A stretch of 54,763 nucleotides of DNA from Flavobacteriales bacterium (lineage in GTDB: Bacteria; Bacteroidota; Bacteroidia; Flavobacteriales_F; PHOS-HE28), in contig DASWWQ010000169.1 in assembly GCA_036405935.1 (NCBI GenBank), positions 1-54,763 on the forward strand, read 5' to 3'. Each line of letters begins with the position of its first letter. Position 1 is the stretch's first letter. Shown here piece by piece: positions 22,997-35,752 of this stretch. The position numbers and the translations under genes are program-made. The notes below the pieces were generated by a model. The model ran no database searches, was not told the DNA's origin, and was given only the letters and a program-made list of their open reading frames with translations.

Positions 22997-23863
22997 TCAA
23001 GGCATCAGCGAGCGCCCGTGCGCGATACGGCCCTGCCCGTTACGCGCCTCGAAGAGCACCACACCCGTACCTGATGGAAGGGCGATGCTTTGACCGTCAT
23101 AGCGCACCTGCACCTCACCGACACTCCGCCCCAGCGTATCCCACAATTGCAACCGGAACGGCACTGGCGTGGATGCGCCCACCCGCACCACGGCGCTGCC
23201 ATCGCCCTGCGGCAGCAGACGAACGGAGCGCTCGTCCATCAGCGCCTCGGACAGGCCCGTGTTGAAGTTCAGCGCGAGGTCGTCCACCTGGAAGTAGGCG
23301 CATTCGCCCGTGCTGGCGCCGGCGCACATACAGTTGACGCAGGAGGAGATCTGGATCACCAACGTGTCGGGTGCCGCCAGGCTCGTGTGGTCGATGTCCA
23401 GCGTGAACGGTGCCCAAGTGGCCTGCTCCCCGAACAGTTCCTCGCCGATGCCCACCGTGTCGCGTTGCAGGGTGGCGGCGTTCCAGCGCGTCAGCAGCAC
23501 CTGTACCCGCGCGGAGTTGTCTTCGCCCTCCTCCAGGTCACCGGCCGTTCGTTTGTACCAGCCCGTAAGCTGGTCCGGAATGCCCGTGATCGGAAGTCCC
23601 TCGGGACCGGGCCAAGCGTTCGGACCATTGGAGGCATAGCCCTCCGCATACCAGTACCAGTTCCACACCGAGAGGGCATAGTTGCCGCTGTGCGCATCGC
23701 CCACCAGGGCCGCACCGTAGTCGGCACCGAAGGTCCAGTTGTAGGGTAGGGTGGGCAGCTCCGGATCGAAGGGCACGATGACCGCCTCGAAACCGCCGTT
23801 GGACACTTGGGCCGATGCCGTGATCCCGAGCAGGACCGATACCAGGGTGAACGTGTTGCGCAT
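22997..23863 (-). CDS. Hypothetical secreted protein with CTD-like C-terminus
   Basis: ORF 22997..23983 trimmed to the ATG at 23863 ([19 protein letters not shown]). C-terminal about 80 aa are beta-rich ([13 protein letters not shown]...[21 protein letters not shown]). Confidence 0.6.
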
Positions 23864-24054
23864 GGGATGGCTGTTGATGCCGACAAAGCAAGGAGGCCCT
23901 CCGGCCCCGCGCACTGGACGGAGGCGGGGAGGTGTTGGACAATTCGGGGGAAGCACAGGGCCGTGATCGCGACCATACTGCAAGACCCGGCATGAAGGGA
24001 ATGGGGTCCTCCGGCGGTGCAGGGGCCGATAAGCCGGTGCGTGCCGTGATCGCT

Positions 24055-24747
24055 TCAGCGCTTGCTGCTCACGAAATGTCGGAGCTGGTTCATGATGTTC
24101 TCCGCACGCTCCGTAGATACCCGTGGATCGAGGTGTGCGTGGATCGCTTCGTGGAGATCTTTCCGTCGGAGCAGTGAGCTGAACTCCTGCCGGAGGTAGT
24201 GCTGCACATCATCAGGTGCATTCCGGAATTCCTCCAACCACCCCAGCCTGCCATCGAGAACGAAGACGATATCCTCGAAGTCCTTGCTGGTGCGCATGTC
24301 ACCGCCGCGGCTTTTGAACGCTTCCAGTTTGGTGGCCAGGAAATACGGCGTGGTCAACAGCTTGATCGTCGAAGCGTCGGGAAGTACATGGTCCAGAGCA
24401 TGGGTCATGCCGGGTATGTACCACTTGTTCGTGGGGCCGATCGCTGGCACATCCGTTGGCATGATGTCCACCATGACGCCGTGGAACCGATAACGACAGA
24501 TGACCTCATCCTCCGGCGAATGATGGAACCCCAATCGGCGCAGACGTTCTTCCAAGCGCTCATACTCCGTGTAACTGGATACCACGATGACCAGATCGAT
24601 ATCGGAGGTCGGTCGCGGAATATCCGCACCCGGGTCGTTGGCGTACAGACTGACCACTGCGCCACCTACGAACACCACTTGGTCGCGCAGTTCCTCCAGG
24701 CCACCGGCGACCAACTGTACGGATTGGATGTTGATCGTATCGCGCAT
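24055..24747 (-). CDS. Nucleotidyltransferase-fold protein, AbiEii/MNT-like toxin candidate
   Basis: FVGGAVVSLYANDPGADIPRPTSDIDLVI fits the GG/GS...DxD minimal NTase motif. The start overlaps the upstream stop (TGATG; alternative GTG at 24750). Confidence 0.55.
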   Translation of the reverse strand: MRDTINIQSVQLVAGGLEELRDQVVFVGGAVVSLYANDPGADIPRPTSDIDLVIVVSSYTEYERLEERLRRLGFHHSPEDEVICRYRFHGVMVDIMPTDVPAIGPTNKWYIPGMTHALDHVLPDASTIKLLTTPYFLATKLEAFKSRGGDMRTSKDFEDIVFVLDGRLGWLEEFRNAPDDVQHYLRQEFSSLLRRKDLHEAIHAHLDPRVSTERAENIMNQLRHFVSSKR

Positions 24748-25259
24748 CACTTCAAGCGTCTCGCCAGTTCCTTGGCAGCCTCCGCACGTTCGCGCGTACG
24801 GCCCACACGTAGCGCATCCGTGAGTGCAAGGAGCGCGTGAAACTCCGGGTCGTTCAAGGAGGCGGCAACGGCACCCGGATAGAGTGGAGGGATCTCGTGT
24901 CCGCGTTCCTCACCCATGGCCGATGCCCAAACGTAGGTCTCTTCGCTCATGAACTTCGAACGCAACGGTGAAGCGGAATGAGCGGTGGGCACGCCACGTA
25001 CCATACCGCCGGGCCGGGCCGGGAACACATAGGCAAGACCATGCTGAAGGAAGTCGAGCAGCGCCTGGACCGCCACTTTGCGTTTGCCGGTATCGATCAA
25101 ACCGGCCAATGCCGAGCGCTTCAGTGAATTGCTCACCTCAGCAGGGCTCAGATGCAATGCCGCCGCCACCTCCCGGGCCAACCAGGGCTTTTCTCCGAGT
25201 GCCGCGATCTTGAGCAGCACCGCCACATCCTGTGGCCGCATTCCTTTATGAACGTTCAT
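24747..25259 (-). CDS. Winged-HTH protein, AbiEi-like antitoxin candidate
   Basis: 170 aa. N-terminal wHTH-like RPQDVAVLLKIAALGEKPWLAREVAAALHLSPAEVSNSLKRSALAGLI. Coupled to the NTase gene. Confidence 0.5.
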   Translation of the reverse strand: MNVHKGMRPQDVAVLLKIAALGEKPWLAREVAAALHLSPAEVSNSLKRSALAGLIDTGKRKVAVQALLDFLQHGLAYVFPARPGGMVRGVPTAHSASPLRSKFMSEETYVWASAMGEERGHEIPPLYPGAVAASLNDPEFHALLALTDALRVGRTRERAEAAKELARRLK

Positions 25260-25405
25260 GATTCATGATTCGTGAATTGCAAATATAGGCTGGGCTGGAT
25301 CACCTGTTCGTCCATCAGTTGGTCCGGCAGGCCGTGGCTACATTGGTCTGCTCCATCATGCACCCCCGCTCAGTGCACCGCCGAGCGGCAGACACACCAC
25401 CCATC

Positions 25406-25765
25406 ATGCACAAGACCCTGCTCCAGATCACCTACTGGACCTTGCTCGCCTCGGGCATCCTGCACTACATCGCCGACGTGCTCTCGCAATACCTGCGCGG
25501 CGTGCGCACCCCCAGCGCCGAGACCACGCTCTACTACGGCCTGAACACCGCCTACGCGCTGGGCCAAGTGGTCTTCGCCACCTGCGCCCTGCTCATCCTC
25601 CGCAGCGGCTCGTCGCTGATGGACAGCACCGGCGGCATCGCCCTCAGCTTTGCGGCCGTGATCGGCTGGCTTGTCTTCAGCTTCGTCTTCATCGAATACA
25701 CCCCGCCCCGCATCTTCATGGGCCTGGTGCTGGCGCTGCTGGTGGTGGCGACGGTGGTGCGGTGA
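25406..25765 (+). CDS. Small 4-TM membrane protein, unknown function
   Basis: ORF 25319..25765 trimmed to the ATG at 25406 (MHKTLLQITYWTLLASGILHY...). This is the last high-GC gene before the island. Confidence 0.5.
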   Translation: MHKTLLQITYWTLLASGILHYIADVLSQYLRGVRTPSAETTLYYGLNTAYALGQVVFATCALLILRSGSSLMDSTGGIALSFAAVIGWLVFSFVFIEYTPPRIFMGLVLALLVVATVVR

Positions 25766-25888
25766 GGAGGGCGATTTGTCTCAGAGCATTTGTCCAGTTT
25801 GAATTTTCAACGGACACAGGTCTGTCTCCAGCTATGAGAGGTCAAAGCACTGCACAATCAGGTGTGGAAAGCCCTGCCATAGTGGGGA

Positions 25889-25920
25889 TTGATCCTATAT
25901 GACTTGGTGGACTTACTTTG
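25889..25920 (+). promoter_or_regulatory. Candidate Bacteroidota-type promoter of the island operon (TTG-N21-TTACTTTG)
   Basis: TTG at 25889..25891 and TTACTTTG at 25913..25920 (7/8 to TAnnTTTG). Lies 27 nt upstream of the ATG at 25948. Confidence 0.35.
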
Positions 25921-25947
25921 GGACAATACGCAAAGCGCAGATTTGGG

Positions 25948-26922
25948 ATGAAGCGTGCAGAAAACAAGCGAACGATTCGCGCGATCGACATGTTCGCTGG
26001 CGGGGGAGGTAGCAGTTGGGGGGCCAAACAGGCCGGAGTGAAGGTGGTTGCCGCGTTTGACTTGTGGCATCTTGCCGAGAAGAACCACGAGGCCAACTTC
26101 CCCGATGTGCGGTTCTATCGTGATCGGCTGGAGAACCTGGATTTGAAAAAGGTCCGTAAAGAGGTGGGCCGGATCGATCTGATCATGGCCTCGCCCGAGT
26201 GCACGAACCACAGCCCGGCCAAAGGCAACAAACCACGCAGCGAGGAAAGCAAGGACACCGCATTTCAAGTCACGCGCTTCGCAGAGGCCTTCAAGCCAAA
26301 GTGGATCGTGGTGGAGAACGTGGTGAACATGCGGAAGTGGTCGCGCTATAAGGAGTTCCAGGGCAAGCTCGAAGCGCTAGGCTATAAGTGCACTGAGCAA
26401 GTATTGAATGCAGCCGACTTTGGAGTGGCCCAAAGCAGGCGGCGACTGTTCCTCCTGTGCCAGCGAGGCAAGAAGGCACCACTCAAGACACACAAGCCCG
26501 ACCTGCCCAAGGTCAGCGTGAGGCCCATCGTGAACATGAACGGTGCGTACCGATGGACACCACTCAACCAGCCCAGACGGGCGAAGGCGACCTTAGAACG
26601 TGCTTCGCGAGGCTTTGAGAAGATGGGCTACAACAGCGCCTTTTTATTAGTCTACTATGGCTCGGATGGCGGTGGTGGCTGGCAGCGATTGAGCCGTCCA
26701 TTGCGCACGATCACAACTGTGGACCGGTTCGCCATCGTGAAGCCGACTCCGCAGGGTCACGTGATGCGGATGCTACAGGTACCGGAACTACAACAAGCGA
26801 TGGGTATGCACGGCATGTGCTTCGAACACGGCACTCGGCGAGACAAGATTAAGATGATTGGGAATGCTGTGTGTCCCCCTGTCATGGCCACTGTACTCAG
26901 AGAACTTACTCGCAACAAGTAA
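25948..26922 (+). CDS. DNA (cytosine-5)-methyltransferase
   Basis: ORF 25918..26922 trimmed to the ATG at 25948. Motif I DMFAGGGG, motif IV ASPECTNHS (P-E-C, not the canonical P-C-Q), ENV (VVENVV), QSRRRLFLL, motif X GNAVCPPV. Confidence 0.92.
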   Translation: MKRAENKRTIRAIDMFAGGGGSSWGAKQAGVKVVAAFDLWHLAEKNHEANFPDVRFYRDRLENLDLKKVRKEVGRIDLIMASPECTNHSPAKGNKPRSEESKDTAFQVTRFAEAFKPKWIVVENVVNMRKWSRYKEFQGKLEALGYKCTEQVLNAADFGVAQSRRRLFLLCQRGKKAPLKTHKPDLPKVSVRPIVNMNGAYRWTPLNQPRRAKATLERASRGFEKMGYNSAFLLVYYGSDGGGGWQRLSRPLRTITTVDRFAIVKPTPQGHVMRMLQVPELQQAMGMHGMCFEHGTRRDKIKMIGNAVCPPVMATVLRELTRNK

Positions 26923-29036
26923 TGGCAGAGCCGGATAGCAAAAAGGGTGTGCAGCTGCATCCGGATGATCTTGTCTTTCAGGTCAAACCGCGCATTCTGG
27001 GACTTCTCGGTGACCAACTAATACGAGACGCTACGCTTGCGGTGTTCGAATTGGTGAAGAACGCATACGATGCCGATGCAAACGAGTGCACCGTAACACT
27101 TGAGGATGCTCTCGATCCGCGCAAATCCCGAATCACGGTCAAAGACAACGGGTCGGGTATGACGCGGGAAACGATTCAAGATTCATGGATGGTGATTGCG
27201 ACAGACTTTCGAACGAGTCAGCGCGCTCGGAACGAAAGAAGTCCTCGGTACAATCGATATGCACTTGGCGAGAAAGGACTTGGGCGCTTCTCTATTCATA
27301 AGCTTGGCCATGAAATCAGAATGACTACAAGGACTGATGGCGGTCCTGAGTATGTTCTGCAAATCCAATGGGATGAACTTGAAAGTTCTAGCGATTTACG
27401 CTTGAGTCCTATTCGCCTGATCACGAGGGAGCCTGAAGTCTTTAAGGGAAAGAAGCATGGCACCCTTATGGAAATTTGGAAGTTACGAGAAGTGTGGGAG
27501 CGTGGTTCCGTGAGACGACTGCATCGTGCCGTGAATAGTCTTTGTTCCCCATTTGACGCCCCCGATGACTTCAAGGTCGAGCTAAAGGTGCCGGGGAATG
27601 AGGAACTGCTTAAAGGACTGCTTCAGGCAGAGAAGATTCCGACTTATGCGCTATACCACGTAAAAGGGCACTTCGAAGGTCATAGGTTGGAGTTTGACTA
27701 CAAGTTCACACCACCGGTTGGACTGCAGCCACTGTTGACCCCGAGCAAGAAGGCCAAGCATTTCTCAGGTAACCTTCAGCGGAAAGAGCTCAAGGGCAAA
27801 CGCAAGCAAGTAACGTTCGATCTGTCGCAACATGAAATTGGTCGGGTTGAATTCGAATTCTGGTTGTTTGATCGGGATCCAGCCGTCTTGCGTGCATCGA
27901 CGGATGACATCAAGGGACTCAAGGATTACCTCGATGAGAATGGTGGGGTAAGAATCTACCGCGACGGAATACGTGTTTATGACTTTGGAGAGCCAGGTAA
28001 TGACTGGCTGAATCTGGATATCCGACGCGTTAACACGCCAACTGCACGTACAAGTAACAATCAGATTATTGGTGCTTTATGGCTCTCAGCTGAGGATAGC
28101 GGCGACCTGAGAGAGAAATCAAATCGTGAGGGGTTCATTGAAAGTCCCGCCTTCAACGATTTCAAAGACGCCGTCATTTCGGTTCTAACCAACGTTGAAG
28201 CAGAGAAGACCCGGGATCAGCAGCACGTGCGCGAAGCTGTTGGTAAGGGCACTGGAGGTCGTGTTTTCACGCACCTGAATGAGTTGCGCGATACGCTTGC
28301 GCAAAAGGGCATGCTGGAGGAGTTGGACCCCCAATTGAAGAAGGTCGAACGCGAGATGGAGTTGTACCGCGACCAGCTATTGCATGCGGCCGTTCCAGGT
28401 CTCTCCATGGGCATGATGCTTCATGGTGCTGAGAAAATCATGGAAGAGCTTCGCGCTGCGGTCAACAAGGGCGAGAGTGTAAAGCACGTTGCAGCGCTTG
28501 TTGATCGGCTGTACAGAGCGATGCGACCGGTCACAAACCTGCTGAAGGACCCAGGCATCGGCAAAACGACGGCCACCGCGTTAATCGCGGAAGCCAAGTT
28601 CTCGACGGCGTTACGTCTTAAGCGTCATGGCATCGCCCCGATCTATCCAGAGCGCCCGTTTGATTTCCCCGTGCGTGGCTCAAAACAAATGCTGGTTGCC
28701 GCGCTTACCAACTTGGTTGACAACGCAATCCACTGGCTAGAGGTCAAGAACCCGGATAAGAAGATTCTCTATCTGAGCACGACAAACGATTTGAGTTCGG
28801 GGCCGGCCATCGTGGTGGGGGACAATGGTCCTGGATTCGGGAGTGATGATCCTCAAGATCTGGTCCTGCCCTTCTTTACACGACGGAGAGACAGCATGGG
28901 ACTCGGTCTCTATATCGTTAACGAGGTAATGGCAGCGAATCAAGGGCGATTGGTCTTTCCGGCAAAAGGAGATATCAACCTGCCGAAGGAAGTTACCGGT
29001 GCCGTGGTCGCGTTGCAGTTTCCAGACAAGCCATGA
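26922..29036 (+). CDS. Double Bergerat-fold protein: N-terminal MORC/MutL/Hsp90-type GHKL ATPase module plus C-terminal histidine-kinase-like DHp + CA module
   Basis: The ATG at 26922 shares one nt with the MTase stop (TAATG). N-terminal half: ELVKNAYDA (N box), DNGSGM (G1, nt 27144..27161), GEKGLGRFS (G2). C-terminal half: helical MMLHGAEKIMEEL (His501, nt 28422..28424), NLVDNAIHW, GDNGPGF (nt 28821..28838), GLGLYIV. No TM segments. Confidence 0.8.
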   Translation: MAEPDSKKGVQLHPDDLVFQVKPRILGLLGDQLIRDATLAVFELVKNAYDADANECTVTLEDALDPRKSRITVKDNGSGMTRETIQDSWMVIATDFRTSQRARNERSPRYNRYALGEKGLGRFSIHKLGHEIRMTTRTDGGPEYVLQIQWDELESSSDLRLSPIRLITREPEVFKGKKHGTLMEIWKLREVWERGSVRRLHRAVNSLCSPFDAPDDFKVELKVPGNEELLKGLLQAEKIPTYALYHVKGHFEGHRLEFDYKFTPPVGLQPLLTPSKKAKHFSGNLQRKELKGKRKQVTFDLSQHEIGRVEFEFWLFDRDPAVLRASTDDIKGLKDYLDENGGVRIYRDGIRVYDFGEPGNDWLNLDIRRVNTPTARTSNNQIIGALWLSAEDSGDLREKSNREGFIESPAFNDFKDAVISVLTNVEAEKTRDQQHVREAVGKGTGGRVFTHLNELRDTLAQKGMLEELDPQLKKVEREMELYRDQLLHAAVPGLSMGMMLHGAEKIMEELRAAVNKGESVKHVAALVDRLYRAMRPVTNLLKDPGIGKTTATALIAEAKFSTALRLKRHGIAPIYPERPFDFPVRGSKQMLVAALTNLVDNAIHWLEVKNPDKKILYLSTTNDLSSGPAIVVGDNGPGFGSDDPQDLVLPFFTRRRDSMGLGLYIVNEVMAANQGRLVFPAKGDINLPKEVTGAVVALQFPDKP

Positions 29037-30436
29037 TTGAACAGCTCACTTCACCTTCAGTTTGCCTGATTGACGACGAAGCCGAGGACTATGGGCCGAT
29101 GCTAAAGGCCTTGTTCAGGCTGGGGGTCGCATGTATTCACTTTACAGGCTCGTCACATAAAGGAACGCCCAAGAAGCCTTTGGCAGATTTGCAACTCGTG
29201 TTCATGGATTTGCATCTGCAAGGCAGCATGGGCAAAACGGCGACTGCTCATGCCGTGAACGTTTTCACAAAGACAGTTTCTCCCAAGGCTGGTCCAGTGG
29301 TGGTGGTCATTTGGAGCAAGTATGCCAACGATCCTCCTCACGATCTCCCTCCCGAAGATGAGGCAACTACAGAAGTTGGCCGTTTCAAAACCGCGCTTAA
29401 GGAAACGATGGGTGATGCCTATGATCGCCTAATCATGTTAGTAATGCCCAAACCTCATCGAAATCAAAGGCCAGCCAATGATCGTTGGGTTCGCGATGTT
29501 GCAAACGGGGTAAAGCAAATTCTTGGGCAGCGCGCGGGTATCGGCCTCCTCTGGTCATGGGAGAAGATGGCAAAAGACGCTGCGGGTTCTGTATGTGGAA
29601 TCTTGACAACGCTCGCACTTGGCATGGCTCGTGCGAGCAATGCACCGGCTACTGATGATGGAGGGGAGCCTCTGAATGAGAACATAAAGCAGCTCATGAA
29701 GCTGCTCGCACAGTCCCAAGGTGCATCAGACTGTAGCCCCAAAACCGCCGCGCGCTACCTCATCATGACGATGAATCAATTGGCGCAAGACCAGCTCGAA
29801 CACTTTGTGATCCCCAAGAAGGTCGATGAACAAGGCGCATGGCTCTCAAATGCCTTGAATGCAAATGAACCCCCAGGATTGGATCGAGCTGAACTGAACG
29901 CGATGCTCCTTAGCACCCAGTCAACGGGACAAGATTTCAAACCGGGTACCGTTTATGAGGTGGAGAATGCCTCGGCGTGGGAGAGGCATACTGGACTGAG
30001 CCTCGAAGAGCTGAGATTCGATTGTTGTGTAAAAGGAGCCACAGCCCTTGCAGAGTTGACAGCCAATAGCACTCTGGTTCTCGTGGAATTGACACCTAGT
30101 TGTGACTACGCTCATGTGGGCAAGAGGAAGACCTCGGTTCTTATGGCGGGGCTTGCTGTAAATGAGGCTGCACTAAGACACATCAAGACAGCAGGAACTA
30201 CTAAAATTATTCCTCAGCCGATTGGCGGCAATCAGAGAAATCCGCTGACTAATCGCTTTGCCACGCCTCAGAAGAAGATTGGATTTGTCTTCTGCAGCAT
30301 GTATCCAACAGTTCTGCCTTTGAAGAAGCAACCTAAATGGATTAAGCCCATGGCGCGATTGCGAGAGACCGTGGCAATGGACGTACGATACTGGGCCTCA
30401 TCGCAAGCCGCCCGAGTGGGCTATCTGTCAGTCTGA
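29033..30436 (+). CDS. Receiver (REC)-domain protein with unassigned ~325-aa C-terminal domain
   Basis: ATGA overlap with the upstream gene. REC signature residues are present: LIDDE (D14, D15), VFMDLHL (D59, nt 29207..29209), VVVIWSKY (S95), VMPKP (K140-P141). I recognise no HTH, TM or catalytic motif downstream. Confidence 0.75.
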   Translation: MIEQLTSPSVCLIDDEAEDYGPMLKALFRLGVACIHFTGSSHKGTPKKPLADLQLVFMDLHLQGSMGKTATAHAVNVFTKTVSPKAGPVVVVIWSKYANDPPHDLPPEDEATTEVGRFKTALKETMGDAYDRLIMLVMPKPHRNQRPANDRWVRDVANGVKQILGQRAGIGLLWSWEKMAKDAAGSVCGILTTLALGMARASNAPATDDGGEPLNENIKQLMKLLAQSQGASDCSPKTAARYLIMTMNQLAQDQLEHFVIPKKVDEQGAWLSNALNANEPPGLDRAELNAMLLSTQSTGQDFKPGTVYEVENASAWERHTGLSLEELRFDCCVKGATALAELTANSTLVLVELTPSCDYAHVGKRKTSVLMAGLAVNEAALRHIKTAGTTKIIPQPIGGNQRNPLTNRFATPQKKIGFVFCSMYPTVLPLKKQPKWIKPMARLRETVAMDVRYWASSQAARVGYLSV

Positions 30437-30563
30437 CGATAAGCTTCAGTCATATCAGTGTTTCTGCCTCTCCCCAGAGAACACCTTGAAGAGCAAGAGG
30501 CCCTCCACCGCTCCTCCAAAGAGCATCCGCGACGTGGATGGTCTGTTGGTCCAAGTCACGGTA

Positions 30564-31016
30564 ATGCCAGATGACTTGCTCCTACTTCTGCGCGCCAGAT
30601 TGGAAGAAGAGATGCGCAAGCGTAAGATTGCATTCTCAGTCGGGGCGGTCGGTGAGGGACTTGTGATAAGCCATTTCAAAGGAACTCCTGGACTACCTAA
30701 TCTTCAACTTGCTCCTACCGGAACGAAGAATGTCGATGCGCTTTCGCGAAATGGTGATCGCTATTCGATCAAGACCATCTGCAATGCGAAGAAGACAGGG
30801 ACGATCTATCCCGACGCTTTGGACAAGGACAGACAGCTTTTTGAGTACTTGATTATCGCGCGTTTGACTGCTGACTGGTCATTGCATAGCATTCATCAGT
30901 TCAGCTGGAGCGCTTTCTTGGAAGTTCGTTCGTGGGACAAACGGATGAACGCTTGGTATGTAGCCATTTCTGAACGAGCCATGGCTAAGGCAACGCGCAT
31001 CTTGCCGGTTGAGTAG
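30564..31016 (+). CDS. Small PD-(D/E)xK-like protein (candidate restriction-endonuclease-fold), hypothetical
   Basis: ORF 30486..31016 uses a TTG start. The first ATG is at 30564 (MPDDLLLLLRARL...). GAVGEGLVISHF...GTKNVDALSRNGDRYSIKT gives an E...D...(S)xK arrangement resembling the nuclease core. The assignment rests on motif only. Confidence 0.45.
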   Translation: MPDDLLLLLRARLEEEMRKRKIAFSVGAVGEGLVISHFKGTPGLPNLQLAPTGTKNVDALSRNGDRYSIKTICNAKKTGTIYPDALDKDRQLFEYLIIARLTADWSLHSIHQFSWSAFLEVRSWDKRMNAWYVAISERAMAKATRILPVE

Positions 31017-32331: not shown

Positions 32332-32734
32332 TGCGTCGTTCAGCATGTGACGTGGGCGTACTATTTCGTAGCCACGATCAGGAACGCGAAAATATCCTTC
32401 GTGAAGGCGAAAGGCCGGAGGCCTACATATTCGTGCCGGGGACTTGGTCCGAAGTGACCGGATCAGGCCAAGAACGGATCTACTTGGTTGCCATCGACCG
32501 AACGCGTTCGAACCCAACGGCGTTGATGACCCTTGGATCGAACCCGCTGGAAAGTTCCTGGAACGGCGGAGCCGGTAAGGTGTCCGAAATCGTCATGCCG
32601 GAAGAGTTGTTCGCATCGACATCACCTGCGTGACGGACCGCACATGGCCCTGCGCGGGAAGTTGACGCGTAGCGAGTTCTCGCTATTGGAAGGGTGCCTC
32701 GGTCCGGCGTTCTTTGCTCGTTCAACCTCCTCCC

Positions 32735-35700
32735 ATGCGTGCCCTTTTCCTGTACTTCGTCCTGCTGCCCGTCCTGCTGAAGGCCCAAACACCCACCTAT
32801 GCCTGGGCCCACAGTGTGCGCAACGTAGGCACGGACGGGCAAGGGAACCAGTGCATCGATGTGTCCACCGCCCCCGATGGTAGCCTGTATGCGATCGGGA
32901 TCTCGTACGGCACGGAGGTGATCATCGACGATGTGCTGCTGCCCATGCAGGGCGACCGCCGCTACCTGGTGCGTTTCGACAGCACGGGTAATCCCTTGTG
33001 GAGCCGCAGTCCGGGTGGTTGGGCGGTGGCCGCGGATGGGAATAATGGTGTCTATGTAGCCGGCTTGTTGTTCCAACCGCTCACCTTCGCCGGTACCACC
33101 TACACCCCCAGCGGCAACGATGCCTTCCTGGCGAAATACGGTCCCGATGGCGAGGAACTCTGGCTCCGCAGAATGGGTGGTGCGGGCGATGATGGCGCCT
33201 TCGATGTGGCCGTGGATGGACTGGGCCGCGTGCATGTGAGCGGTTTCTTCACGGGCACGGTGGACTTCGGTGGTGCCACGCTCACGGCCACGCATGCACA
33301 AACGGGTTTCCACGCCAGCTACAACGCTGCCGGTAACCTGCAGTGGGCCGCGCTGGCCGGTGGATACGACCCACCGGAACCGGGGGTGTACACCTGGAAC
33401 GCCCTTGCCTGTGACGGGGAGGGCAACAGCTACATCACGGGCAATTTCACCGGCACCGGTCTGTTCGGAACCAATAGTACGTCCATCAACACCACGCAGA
33501 CCGAACGGCAGTACCTGGCGCGATACGATGCGAACGGCGCCTGCATCTGGGCGGTGGTGAACGGCTCCGCTACGGGGAATGTGGGATCCCACATCTCCCT
33601 ATCCGCCACCGGTGGATTGTACCTGTGCGGCAGTTTCAAGGGTACGGCGGCTTCGTTCGGAGCGAACAACACGGTGTACAATGCGCACCCCAACAACGCT
33701 CAGATCTACGTGGCCCGGTACGACACCGCAGGCGATGGGCAATGGGCCGTGATCCTGACCGGTGGCGTGTTCGGCAGCTCCGCCAGCAGCGTTTGCACCG
33801 ATGCTGCCGGCACGGTGTGGGTGACCGGAACAGCGGGGTCGGGCAGCTCGGACCCGGAGGATGAACTCGTGGATGTCGGTGGCTTCGAGGTATTCGACAA
33901 CCTGATCTTCATTGGTCAGCTCGATCCCGATGGCACGGTGCTGAACGTGGAGAACATGGTGGGCCTGCAATCGCACGGCGCGCACACCATCGATGCCTTC
34001 GGCGCCCACATCACCTACGGATCGCTCTTCAGCTACCGCAATTTCGACCCTGCGGGCATGGCGGTGTTCGGCTCGTCGTTGCTCGATGCCGACAACGGCT
34101 ATGTGGCGCGCTATTCACCCGGCTTCGCATACCGCTGGTTGCGGATGGCGGGGCAGCCTGGCGTGGCGGCTGATGCCACCACCGCCGTGGCGTTGGGCAC
34201 CGCTGGGGAGGTATACAGCACGGGCTACTTCAACACCACGGCCATCATCTGCGGTGACACCTTGTGGGCACCGTTGGAGAACACGCACATCTGGCTGAAC
34301 AAACGTGCGGCGGACGGCAGTTGCTTGTGGAAACGGCAGATCAGGTGCAGCCGCGCCGGCAGCATGTCGCAGGTCAACGCGGCCTTGGGCATGGCCGTAG
34401 CGGCGAACGGCGATGTGGTGTTGTGCGGTCGTTTCTTCGGCACCATCGACTTCGGTGCGGTGCAGTTGACGAGCGTGGGGCGGGCCGACCTCTTCCTGGC
34501 GCGCTTCAACGCGGACGGCACCTGCTTGTGGGCCGTGCGCGGCGGTGGCACCGGTGATGACGAGGGCACCGCGCTCGCGCTGACAGCGAATGGCGACATC
34601 GGGGTCACCGGTGCGTACACGGGCAGCGCCACGATCGCGGGTGTTGCACTCACCAGCCAAGGTGCCACCGACGGTTTCGTGGCGCGGTACAGCGGTAGTG
34701 GGAACAGCCTGGCCTGTGCAAGCTTCGGTGGCAGCGCGGCGGACTTCGGTTCGGCCATTGCCGTGGACGCGACAGGCAACGCATACGTTGCGGGCCGCTT
34801 CACCACCAGCGCCACCTTCGGCACCACCACGCTGGAGAGCACGGCTCTGGAAGACCTCTTCGTAGCGCAATACACGCCCACCAATACCGTGGGGTGGGCA
34901 GTGGGCAGCACGGGTGCGGACCACAAACAAGCGAACGGCATCGCCTTGGGTGCGGGCGGTCGCCTCCATGTGGTAGGCACCTACTACGCGAGCCTCACCT
35001 GGGGTGCCACCACGATCATGGGCGACCCCGCGGCATACCACCCCTTCTTCGCCACCCTGAACACCGCCGGTGAAATGCAATGGTTGCATGACCTGCCCTG
35101 CACCGACGGTTCCGCCCAGGTCATCCGGGTGCGCCCCGGTGGCGAAGTGGTGGTGGGCGGCCAATTCAGCGGAAGTCTGGATGTGGGCACCACGACCGTG
35201 ACCACGAGCGGCACATCGGCAGCTTGGATGGCCGCATTCAACCCCGAAGGCGAAGACCATTGGGTGCAGGTGATGGAGGGCAGTACCAGCGGCGATGCAG
35301 GCCTCTGCTCCACCCTTGCCGTGGACGCCGAACAGGTGATCGCTGGCGGCCATTTCGGCAACTACGTCTTCATGGCCTTTTTCCAACCCGGTTCCACCTT
35401 CTCGTTCGATGCAGGGAGCACTGCTGATGATCTGTTCGCGCCGAACAGTTACGACGCCTACGTGGCGAAGTACACCATCCCGCAGATCATGGCCATCGAT
35501 GAAAGGGGCAGTTCGGCGTTGCTGCTCGCCCCGAACCCGGTGACCCGCACCGGCACCGTCCAACCCGATGCTCCGCTTGCCCCCGACGCCACGGTCCGCA
35601 TCAACGACATCACCGGCCGCACGGTCCACGTACCCTTGCTCCGGCAAACGGAACGGTTCACCTTCGATGCAAGCGCCTTGGCACCGGGAACCTATTTGCT

Positions 35701-35752
35701 CACGCTGGAGCAAGGTGGGATGCAGCGCAGTGTGCGCTTCGTGAAGGAGTGA
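32735..35752 (+). CDS. Large SBBP-type beta-propeller repeat protein with T9SS C-terminal sorting domain
   Basis: ORF 32714..35752 trimmed to the ATG at 32735 (MRALFLYFVLLPVLLKAQ). Repeated GxxxDxGxAIAVDxxGNxYVTGxF units. C-terminus LLLAPNPVTRTGTV...GTYLLTLEQGGMQRSVRFVKE. Confidence 0.8.
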   Translation: MRALFLYFVLLPVLLKAQTPTYAWAHSVRNVGTDGQGNQCIDVSTAPDGSLYAIGISYGTEVIIDDVLLPMQGDRRYLVRFDSTGNPLWSRSPGGWAVAADGNNGVYVAGLLFQPLTFAGTTYTPSGNDAFLAKYGPDGEELWLRRMGGAGDDGAFDVAVDGLGRVHVSGFFTGTVDFGGATLTATHAQTGFHASYNAAGNLQWAALAGGYDPPEPGVYTWNALACDGEGNSYITGNFTGTGLFGTNSTSINTTQTERQYLARYDANGACIWAVVNGSATGNVGSHISLSATGGLYLCGSFKGTAASFGANNTVYNAHPNNAQIYVARYDTAGDGQWAVILTGGVFGSSASSVCTDAAGTVWVTGTAGSGSSDPEDELVDVGGFEVFDNLIFIGQLDPDGTVLNVENMVGLQSHGAHTIDAFGAHITYGSLFSYRNFDPAGMAVFGSSLLDADNGYVARYSPGFAYRWLRMAGQPGVAADATTAVALGTAGEVYSTGYFNTTAIICGDTLWAPLENTHIWLNKRAADGSCLWKRQIRCSRAGSMSQVNAALGMAVAANGDVVLCGRFFGTIDFGAVQLTSVGRADLFLARFNADGTCLWAVRGGGTGDDEGTALALTANGDIGVTGAYTGSATIAGVALTSQGATDGFVARYSGSGNSLACASFGGSAADFGSAIAVDATGNAYVAGRFTTSATFGTTTLESTALEDLFVAQYTPTNTVGWAVGSTGADHKQANGIALGAGGRLHVVGTYYASLTWGATTIMGDPAAYHPFFATLNTAGEMQWLHDLPCTDGSAQVIRVRPGGEVVVGGQFSGSLDVGTTTVTTSGTSAAWMAAFNPEGEDHWVQVMEGSTSGDAGLCSTLAVDAEQVIAGGHFGNYVFMAFFQPGSTFSFDAGSTADDLFAPNSYDAYVAKYTIPQIMAIDERGSSALLLAPNPVTRTGTVQPDAPLAPDATVRINDITGRTVHVPLLRQTERFTFDASALAPGTYLLTLEQGGMQRSVRFVKE

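Follow-up and report, generated by a model that had tools for sequence, protein, structure and literature searches.

A C5-methyltransferase-linked kinase–receiver cassette as a candidate bacterial immune module

A contig from a Flavobacteriales bacterium (DASWWQ010000169.1, assembly GCA_036405935.1), analysed here over its full 54,763 nucleotides and referred to as the window, carries four co-directional genes at positions 25948-31016, which we term g1 to g4. The first three encode a C5 cytosine DNA methyltransferase (MTase), a soluble histidine kinase with an N-terminal GHKL ATPase module, and a receiver protein. They represent a cassette that belongs with the paraMORC group of histidine-kinase-like (HK-like) and response-regulator-like (RR-like) protein pairs (PMC8011034), has a sister in the Ambrosia defence system (bioRxiv 10.1101/2025.09.30.679545), and forms a branch with a C5 MTase and a long receiver protein. 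Cassettes of this type have been known from computer analysis since 2021 and have had a validated sister since 2025. New is the receiver protein's C-terminal domain, which is conserved, well folded, without sequence relatives in known families, and located where an output domain is expected. Our preferred reading, which we hold tentatively and rate as slightly short of probable, is that of a methylase-linked, two-component-like immune module in which a phosphorelay gates this domain as the effector.

Features of the four genes, by position in the window:
25948-26922, + strand: g1, C5 cytosine DNA methyltransferase; 324 amino acids (aa) from ATG, with an alternative TTG start at 25918
26922-29036, + strand: g2, soluble paraMORC-type histidine kinase; 704 aa, with a GHKL-S5-like ATPase module, DHp and CA
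27006-27491, + strand: GHKL ATP-binding domain of g2, about residues 29-190; E43 at 27048-27050, N47 at 27060-27062
28422-28424, + strand: codon of g2 H501, the phospho-acceptor of the DHp helix as predicted from family conservation
28674-29021, + strand: CA domain of g2, about residues 585-700; N box N597/N601, G1 box D634xGxG, F box, G2 box G660LGL
29033-30436, + strand: g3, candidate receiver-effector protein; 467 aa, with a receiver (REC) domain, a helical linker and a novel C-terminal domain
29054-29527, + strand: REC domain of g3, about residues 8-165, from AlphaFold2 (AF2), Foldseek and hhalign; D59 codon at 29207-29209
29918-30433, + strand: C-terminal domain of g3, residues 296-467; candidate effector, beta-barrel-like, possibly with a MazF/PemK-like fold
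30564-31016, + strand: g4, small PD-(D/E)xK-like protein; 150 aa from ATG 30564, 176 aa from TTG 30486

Conserved gene linkage

The four open reading frames (ORFs) were confirmed on the + strand, and both gene junctions in the core were read from the sequence: caagTAATGgca at 26920-26924 (TAATG), where the stop codon of g1 overlaps the start codon of g2, and gccATGAttg at 29033-29036 (ATGA) between g2 and g3. The content of guanine and cytosine (GC) is 0.50-0.57 across 26-31 kb versus 0.60-0.67 in the flanks, so that the genes sit in a compositionally distinct, low-GC island. A first-pass annotation of this DNA, made from its letters, had described four co-directional genes in an island with these overlaps, and its description of the layout was accurate.

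Relatives of the kinase and the receiver protein are widespread. Homologues of g2 fall into more than 3000 clusters at 90% identity and occupy at least 504 loci in a one-genome-per-species collection, with members in Proteobacteria, Acidobacteriota, Planctomycetota, Verrucomicrobiota, Chloroflexota, Bacteroidota and other phyla. They also occur in 130 plasmid records, conjugative plasmids included, with 80% or more of g2 covered in 57 of the records, and on 16 viral or prophage contigs in IMG/VR (L098-L113), often near contig ends, so that the module may travel as prophage cargo. A profile search with g3 retrieved 1457 representatives at 50% identity; a word-based search had yielded 12 relatives only, which is a sensitivity artefact.

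Linkage was counted in 84 independent loci that contain a g2 homologue. In 76 of them, tblastn places a g3-like gene directly after g2, with the 4-nucleotide (nt) overlap of the two genes seen again in homologous loci; 72 have a g1-type MTase, which lies on the same strand upstream or else downstream in convergent orientation. Given these two frequencies, the gene arrangement is not due to chance, and the tight linkage among g2, g3 and the MTase that was at stake in the first-pass annotation holds across the family. A Vsr gene is present in 59 loci. The conserved unit is therefore composed of the MTase, the kinase and the receiver-effector protein, usually together with Vsr, while g4 is accessory.

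Housekeeping genes make up most of the immediate surroundings of this core, so that most loci lack a separate nuclease and the effector probably resides within g2 or g3. The recurrent extra genes encode 5-methylcytosine (m5C)-dependent nucleases of the AspBHI-like type (7-9 of the 84 loci), HsdS (5) and MvaI/BcnI (2). The AspBHI-like proteins (RE_AspBHI_N plus Mrr_cat) are the commonest extra beside the core, for instance in loci L002, L029, L031, L050 and L069. Several homologous loci have genes for C-protein-like helix-turn-helix (HTH) proteins upstream; in the window, no HTH ORF precedes g1, and a Vsr gene is absent.

The frequency of Vsr and the housekeeping surroundings invite a reading outside defence altogether, in which the cassette would be a housekeeping epigenetic or repair module whose MutL-like kinase and receiver monitor m5C-associated damage (T:G mismatches) or control methylation-dependent gene expression. 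A functional interaction between MutL and Vsr is known from the literature, and the first homologues to be noticed were induced during plant infection stress (PMC8011034), both of which would fit; all the same, we consider this explanation very unlikely.

The methyltransferase

g1 matches Pfam DNA_methylase over its full length (E-value 6e-38) and the PADLOC model of the DrmMII-type MTase (2e-96). Motifs I, IV (SPEC), VI (ENV), VIII (QxRRR) and X (GNxVCPP) are kept in 63 homologues linked to g2/g3 in many phyla, in line with the initial description of a C5 MTase with all core motifs. The target-recognition region is likewise conserved in this set, and its conservation together with that of the catalytic motifs suggests that g1-type MTases share a methylation specificity. 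Motif IV, at window positions 26194-26208 (g1 residues 83-87), reads S-P-E-C-T, i.e., Glu and not Pro precedes the catalytic Cys; Glu occupies this position in at least 90% of the 63 homologues and constitutes a subfamily signature of the g2/g3-linked MTases.

DISARM was considered as an identity for the locus and rejected. Only g1 resembles a DISARM component (DrmMII); the DrmA helicase, DrmB (DUF1998) and DrmC/DrmE are not present, and the neighbouring ORFs that were checked comprise a PDC-M21 pair (see below), a small membrane protein and an unrelated 407-aa ORF.

A GHKL module fused to a histidine-kinase core

Judged by its sequence, g2 consists of a GHKL/MutL-like ATPase module to which a histidine-kinase core is joined. 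Pfam HATPase_c_3 matches residues 40-181 (3e-20), and E43, N47, D75xGxG and G116-R122 are 95-100% conserved in the 84 homologues. The CA domain yields profile matches to solved histidine kinases in the PDB (2.4e-09 and weaker), and the residues of its N, G1, F and G2 boxes are 97-100% conserved. A very strongly conserved middle region, which contains GGxRIYRDGIRVYDFGEPGNDW, is the putative S5/transducer part of a MutL/MORC-type module, and the protein shows no evident membrane segments. This agrees with the earlier proposal of a soluble 704-aa protein joining a MORC/MutL-type GHKL module to DHp and CA.

The phospho-accepting histidine was assigned from family conservation, as it is not assignable by alignment to solved kinases, where the alignments begin after helix 1. 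H501 is invariant (100%) in the 84 homologues, compared with 27% for H488; it is therefore the right histidine, as had been picked in the first-pass annotation, and sits 100 residues before the N-box residue N601. The residue that follows H501 is Glu in 71% of the homologues and Gly in the clade of the window.

The restriction-enzyme models that match g2 do so through its GHKL part. NCBIfam NF050001, which describes the GHKL restriction enzymes of the BbrUII/HgiDII type, aligns to residues 21-219 (3e-24) and nowhere else in g2, and in PADLOC only restriction endonuclease (REase) models of the REase_II type are hit, at positions 5-196 of a 659-position model; DefenseFinder-type and PADLOC Type II REase models reach g2-like proteins via the GHKL domain. 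Current annotation of the family is misleading in this and other respects: the names given to its members are ‘sensor histidine kinase’, ‘ATP-binding protein’ and ‘hypothetical protein’, while a Type II restriction enzyme is what some of the defence finders make of them. HgiDII/BbrUII and the validated GHKL-Shedu protein VcSduA (paraMORC3), in which the GHKL N-domain controls a nuclease, do have the same type of N-terminal ATPase module as g2. Their ATPase, however, is fused to the nuclease, whereas g2 carries the DHp-CA kinase core instead and is accompanied by a separate receiver.

These matches raise the possibility, which we regard as improbable, that g2 and g3 are the REase of an ATP-dependent, Type II-like restriction-modification (R-M) system. 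Here, the GHKL clamp would load on unmethylated sites, the cutter would be either the C-terminal domain of g3 or g4/Vsr recruited by the MutL-like module, and the kinase and receiver would act as an internal switch. The confinement of the REase-model matches to the GHKL domain counts against such a system, although the PADLOC and DefenseFinder Type II profiles and the NCBIfam BbrUII/HgiDII model match the N-terminus of AbrB, the Ambrosia HATPase, as well as that of g2. Neither g2 nor g3 yielded a nuclease motif or fold, the C-terminal domain of g3 being nearer to MazF-type barrels than to any DNA nuclease, and the full conservation of the phosphotransfer residues argues for signalling as the main function. 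On the other hand, the tight linkage of an MTase with a conserved target-recognition region and the presence of Vsr are as in classical m5C R-M systems, the C-protein-like HTH genes upstream in several loci would be at home there, and MutL is known from the literature to work with the Vsr and MutH nucleases.

A receiver domain followed by a novel C-terminal domain

The N-terminus of g3 is a true receiver domain. Codon-by-codon inspection verified D14, D15, D59, S95, K140 and P141, with little or no variation at any of them in the family. The AF2 model of this region has a beta-alpha, REC-like topology, and its Foldseek matches are the response regulators EutV, Rv1626, FixJ, DctD and PorX in addition to flavodoxins. 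When a profile of 52 g3 sequences was aligned by hhalign to CheY, Spo0F, PhoB, NtrC and OmpR, a probability of 95.5% (E 1.5e-8) was obtained over 118 columns; D14/D15, D59, S95 and K140 align to D12/D13, D57, T87 and K109 of CheY. The receiver signature recognised in the initial reading is thus present, conserved and backed by a profile comparison. At the sequence level, g3 as a whole has no match in Pfam (Response_reg included), NCBIfam, PADLOC or PDB sequences. The library scans also revealed no DNA-binding or known output motif in the remainder of the protein, as first described, and an HTH or other DNA-binding output domain, considered as a candidate, was not detected.

Residues 296-467 form the C-terminal domain, which AF2 models with the 52-sequence alignment at a predicted local distance difference test (pLDDT) score of 89.4 and a predicted template-modelling (pTM) score of 0.86. 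Within it, G305, C357, D358 and G463 are invariant in the family and P304, E352, G373, R442, R444 and R461 near-invariant. In a Foldseek search against the PDB, the best match is a MazF/PemK toxin, and MazF toxins account for well over half of the top 50 matches; in BFVD, the matches ranked 1, 2 and 4 are PemK/MazF/endoribonuclease entries. These matches have E-values of 0.1-2, below significance, with target-normalised template-modelling scores of up to 0.64-0.67. A loose likeness of motifs may also be drawn between E-x-S-P-x-C-D-x-x-Q-x-K-R of g3 and D-L-S-P-x-x-G-x-E-Q-x-x-x-R-P of MazF/PemK. In contrast to the MazF/PemK/CcdB fold, the g3 domain has an extra N-terminal strand and three helices. 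Sequence comparisons were negative: hhalign of the domain against MazF, Kid and ChpBK gave a probability of 0.5%, a Pfam scan of 24 g3 members at E <= 10 returned no PF02452, and a profile search of the PDB with the domain returned nothing. A MazF/PemK-like fold is possibly what the models point to, and we treat it as a lead and not as a finding.

Two further ideas about the domain were discarded. One was that of a DNA nuclease, since no PD-(D/E)xK, HNH or other nuclease fold was among its Foldseek matches; longer homologues were inspected for other N-terminal fusions of the domain, and no Pfam domains were found in them.

An accessory small nuclease-like gene

For g4, the start at ATG 30564 is the more likely one, as the stretch before residue 27 of the longer form is aligned neither by homologues nor by the PADLOC model. 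The protein matches PADLOC PDLC03213, ‘Type II methyl-directed restriction enzyme’ (1.2e-47), and weakly Pfam DUF6998. E57, D84 and S94-I-K96 (176-aa numbering) are invariant, as are QLFE and RSWD, in accordance with the E...D...xK core first noted. The family comprises more than 1200 clusters at about 65-70% identity, and its mean column identity across phyla is about 65%, an unusual degree of conservation for a restriction-type nuclease, and its genes are always next to a C5 MTase. The ‘methyl-directed’ label would be paradoxical beside a methylase. Identity as a BisI- or DpnI-like enzyme was rejected: no PDB sequence match at E <= 0.7 was obtained, though BisI-family structures are deposited, and the PDB search found no sequence similarity to BisI, Eco15I or NhoI, all of which have solved structures.

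The first-pass annotation had placed g4 on a par with the other three genes, which its distribution contradicts. It is present in 16 of the 84 g2 loci and absent from 68, and it occurs elsewhere in plain C-protein/MTase/g4/Vsr cassettes that lack g2 and g3 (loci L115 and L094) and, as a homologue, after Dcm-Vsr on a Sinorhizobium plasmid. Accordingly, g4 is accessory and not part of the core. For the restriction-enzyme alternative discussed above, g4 cuts both ways: its PD-(D/E)xK-like core and the C-M-g4-Vsr cassettes would supply a cutter, yet it is missing from the 68 loci, and Vsr is missing from the window.

Relation to described systems

That this would be an undescribed system, as initially proposed, does not hold. 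In 2021, Bellieny-Rabelo, Pretorius and Moleleki (Genome Biol Evol; PMC8011034) reported, from computer analysis, a soluble HK-like protein composed of HATPase_c_3, DHp (HEF_HK) and HATPase_c, next to an RR-like protein (Response_reg_2) that had every receiver residue and ‘no other known domain’. Linkage of the pair was 91.6% across 644 regions, C5 methylases were located upstream and Vsr downstream, a paraMORC origin was proposed, and control of R-M systems was offered as a speculative role. The window cassette shares the soluble architecture of the HK-like protein, the adjacent receiver with all REC residues and no other Pfam domain, about 90% linkage (76 of 84) and the neighbourhood of C5 MTase and Vsr. 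It differs in that the phospho-accepting His is followed by Gly in its clade, and not by Glu or Asp; moreover, that study proposed only a regulatory role and defined neither the RR-like protein's C-terminal domain nor g4. The corresponding Pfam entries, PF19191 (HEF_HK) and PF19192 (Response_reg_2), match no window protein (PF19191 none at E <= 10), with the behaviour of the two models in the library unconfirmed. Nor do they match homologues from Pseudomonas, Comamonas, Burkholderia, Rhizobium, Campylobacter, Enterobacter or Hymenobacter, and the precomputed Pfam annotations of 120 close g2 homologues do not include PF19191, while a 2026 preprint lists it as a current entry. As no relative tested is matched, the window clade lies outside the curated models despite its shared architecture and context.

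Ambrosia (van den Berg et al., bioRxiv 10.1101/2025.09.30.679545) consists of the XRE regulator AbrR, the N6-adenine MTase AbrA, the HATPase AbrB, the receiver AbrC and the HNH nuclease AbrD. It protects P. aeruginosa, AbrB N40A and AbrC D60A lose defence, infection induces reporter genes set at the abrA and abrD positions, and AbrC is given a winged HTH by the authors; the 537 instances of the system are reported only in Gammaproteobacteria. By BLASTP, the N-terminal half of g2 is homologous to AbrB residues 1-399 (Table S1; E 2e-41, 28% identity), a segment that matches all 115 loci examined. AbrC shows no similarity to the g3 profile and is found by tblastn in none of the 115 loci, and AbrD has no match in any of them. 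Only the kinase is thus shared with Ambrosia, of which the window system is a sister. Both combine an R-M-like module with a kinase/receiver pair in one cluster, the essential AbrB N40 corresponds to g2 N47, the phospho-Asp D60 of AbrC parallels g3 D59, and each has a nuclease labelled methyl-dependent beside its MTase. They differ in the MTase (N6-adenine versus C5), in the nuclease (HNH versus PD-(D/E)xK-like g4), in the XRE regulator, for which there is no equivalent in the window, in phyletic range (Gammaproteobacteria versus many phyla for the g2/g3 type), and in the receiver, as AbrC has 209 aa with a short helical tail and lacks the 300-aa extension of g3.

A few loci have a protein of about 194 aa after g2 in place of the g3 of about 450 aa (L057 10103-10687, L062 2367-2951, L070 5723-6310). 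These receiver-only proteins resemble AbrC in size, some lie near Type I HsdM/HsdS genes, and the loci may be intermediates between window-type and Ambrosia systems. The recurrence of m5C-dependent nucleases (AspBHI-like, possibly g4) beside an m5C methylase echoes the Ambrosia paradox.

The comparison with Ambrosia also brings up a purely regulatory role for g2 and g3, as a two-component system that, upon infection or stress, switches transcription of neighbouring R-M-type genes (g1, g4, Vsr and methyl-dependent nucleases). The induced abrA- and abrD-position reporters and the winged HTH assigned to AbrC (10.1101/2025.09.30.679545) speak for it, as do the speculation in PMC8011034 and the AbrC-like size of the receiver-only proteins; methyl-dependent nucleases beside an m5C methylase (AspBHI-like in 7-9 loci, g4 in 16) would, in addition, need tight control. 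In g3, however, no HTH or other DNA-binding domain is detectable, and the protein ends instead in a beta-rich domain of 170 residues that contains invariant polar residues and is conserved in 76 of the 84 loci. Translational coupling unites g1, g2 and g3 in one operon, so that g3 would for the most part be its own regulator. Most loci hold nothing to regulate besides MTase and Vsr, and frequent Vsr presumably implies an MTase that is constitutively active on host DNA. On balance, we judge a regulatory role alone to be unlikely.

Detocs, to which the first-pass annotation had likened the locus, consists of the kinase DtcA, the buffer receiver DtcB and DtcC, a receiver-PNP effector, with a phosphorelay to the receiver-effector. 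The analogy stands as regards functional logic, i.e., a two-component phosphorelay that ends in a receiver-effector and not in a transcription factor. It fails as regards kinship: the window has a GHKL-S5 module as sensor, a single receiver gene without a buffer receiver, an integral MTase and no nucleoside phosphorylase (PNP) effector. PADLOC 2.0.0, Pfam and NCBIfam gave no homology signal linking g2 or g3 to Detocs, where the presence of Detocs models in PADLOC 2.0.0 was not checked.

Proposed mechanism

Starting from the domain identities, catalytic residues, gene linkage, homology of the N-terminal half of g2 to AbrB and defence-island context, we infer the steps beyond the domain assignments, including the phosphorelay and the sensing of unmodified DNA, as follows. 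g1 would methylate a fixed cytosine motif in host DNA as a mark of self. A g2 dimer would engage DNA via its MutL/MORC-type GHKL-S5 clamp, and the engagement of unmodified or invading DNA would lead to autophosphorylation of H501, a conversion suggested by the DHp-CA core occupying the position that a nuclease has in related GHKL proteins. From H501, the phosphoryl group would pass to D59 of g3, which the ATGA overlap would keep in fixed stoichiometry with the kinase. Phosphorylation of D59 would then free or dimerise the C-terminal domain, a toxin-like and possibly MazF/PemK-like effector that would stop infection and perhaps host growth too. g4 would be an optional add-on, a small nuclease that could also form an ordinary R-M-like pair with g1.

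A more specific version holds that the system is an R-M-like sensor of self and non-self whose output is not DNA cleavage: phosphotransfer would unlock a MazF-like toxin domain on the receiver protein, making g3 a phospho-gated abortive-infection effector. We consider this version rather doubtful.

Several points weigh against the proposed module. The likeness of the g3 C-terminal domain to MazF/PemK lies below significance and lacks sequence-level support. The window clade has Gly after H501, where canonical HisKA kinases need an acidic residue for kinase activity, as discussed in a 2026 preprint. A g1-type MTase is out of reach in 12 of the 84 loci, several of which are contig ends. The authors of the Ambrosia study favour transcriptional control over a receiver-gated effector (10.1101/2025.09.30.679545). 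Finally, the C5-MTase/long-receiver branch, including the clade of the window, is known from genes alone, and sensing by g2 is a step that we infer.

If the proposed module is correct, it would couple epigenetic self-marking to two-component signalling with an effector domain as output, in place of a transcription factor or a sensor-fused nuclease. Should toxin gating also apply, a phospho-gated effector would be present in hundreds of species of many phyla. The family is large and has members on plasmids and prophages. Defining the C-terminal domain of g3 would add a new effector type and could help to explain Ambrosia. The cassette also links a bacterial MORC-like ATPase to cytosine methylation, a pairing that is central to eukaryotic gene silencing as well.

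Genomic setting in the window

Immediately upstream of g1, on the opposite strand, lies a second gene pair:
24055-25259, - strand: PDC-M21-type gene pair; 231 aa and 170 aa, with a 4-nt overlap

The pair matches both components of the PADLOC candidate system PDC-M21 (B 6e-60, A 4e-41), and its larger gene has a weak match to the Pfam AbiEii nucleotidyltransferase toxin (1.5e-11). By these model matches, it is a predicted second defence or toxin-antitoxin-like module directly adjoining g1-g4, the setting of which is therefore a small defence island. This island, together with the homology of the g2 N-terminus to AbrB of a validated system, supports the defence context assumed at the outset.

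Transfer RNA genes, integrases and convincing flanking direct repeats were sought at the island borders and not found, and promoter and terminator scans were uninformative, with counts at or below shuffle expectation. The GC content is 0.50-0.59 over window positions 24000-31000, with 0.60-0.67 in the flanks. In a way that suggests a high-GC Bacteroidota host, the ORFs on either side, 22997-23983 (- strand) and 32714-35752 (+ strand), carry signal peptides, and the larger of them, 32714-35752, has a C-terminal sorting-type tail that resembles those of Bacteroidota type IX secretion substrates.

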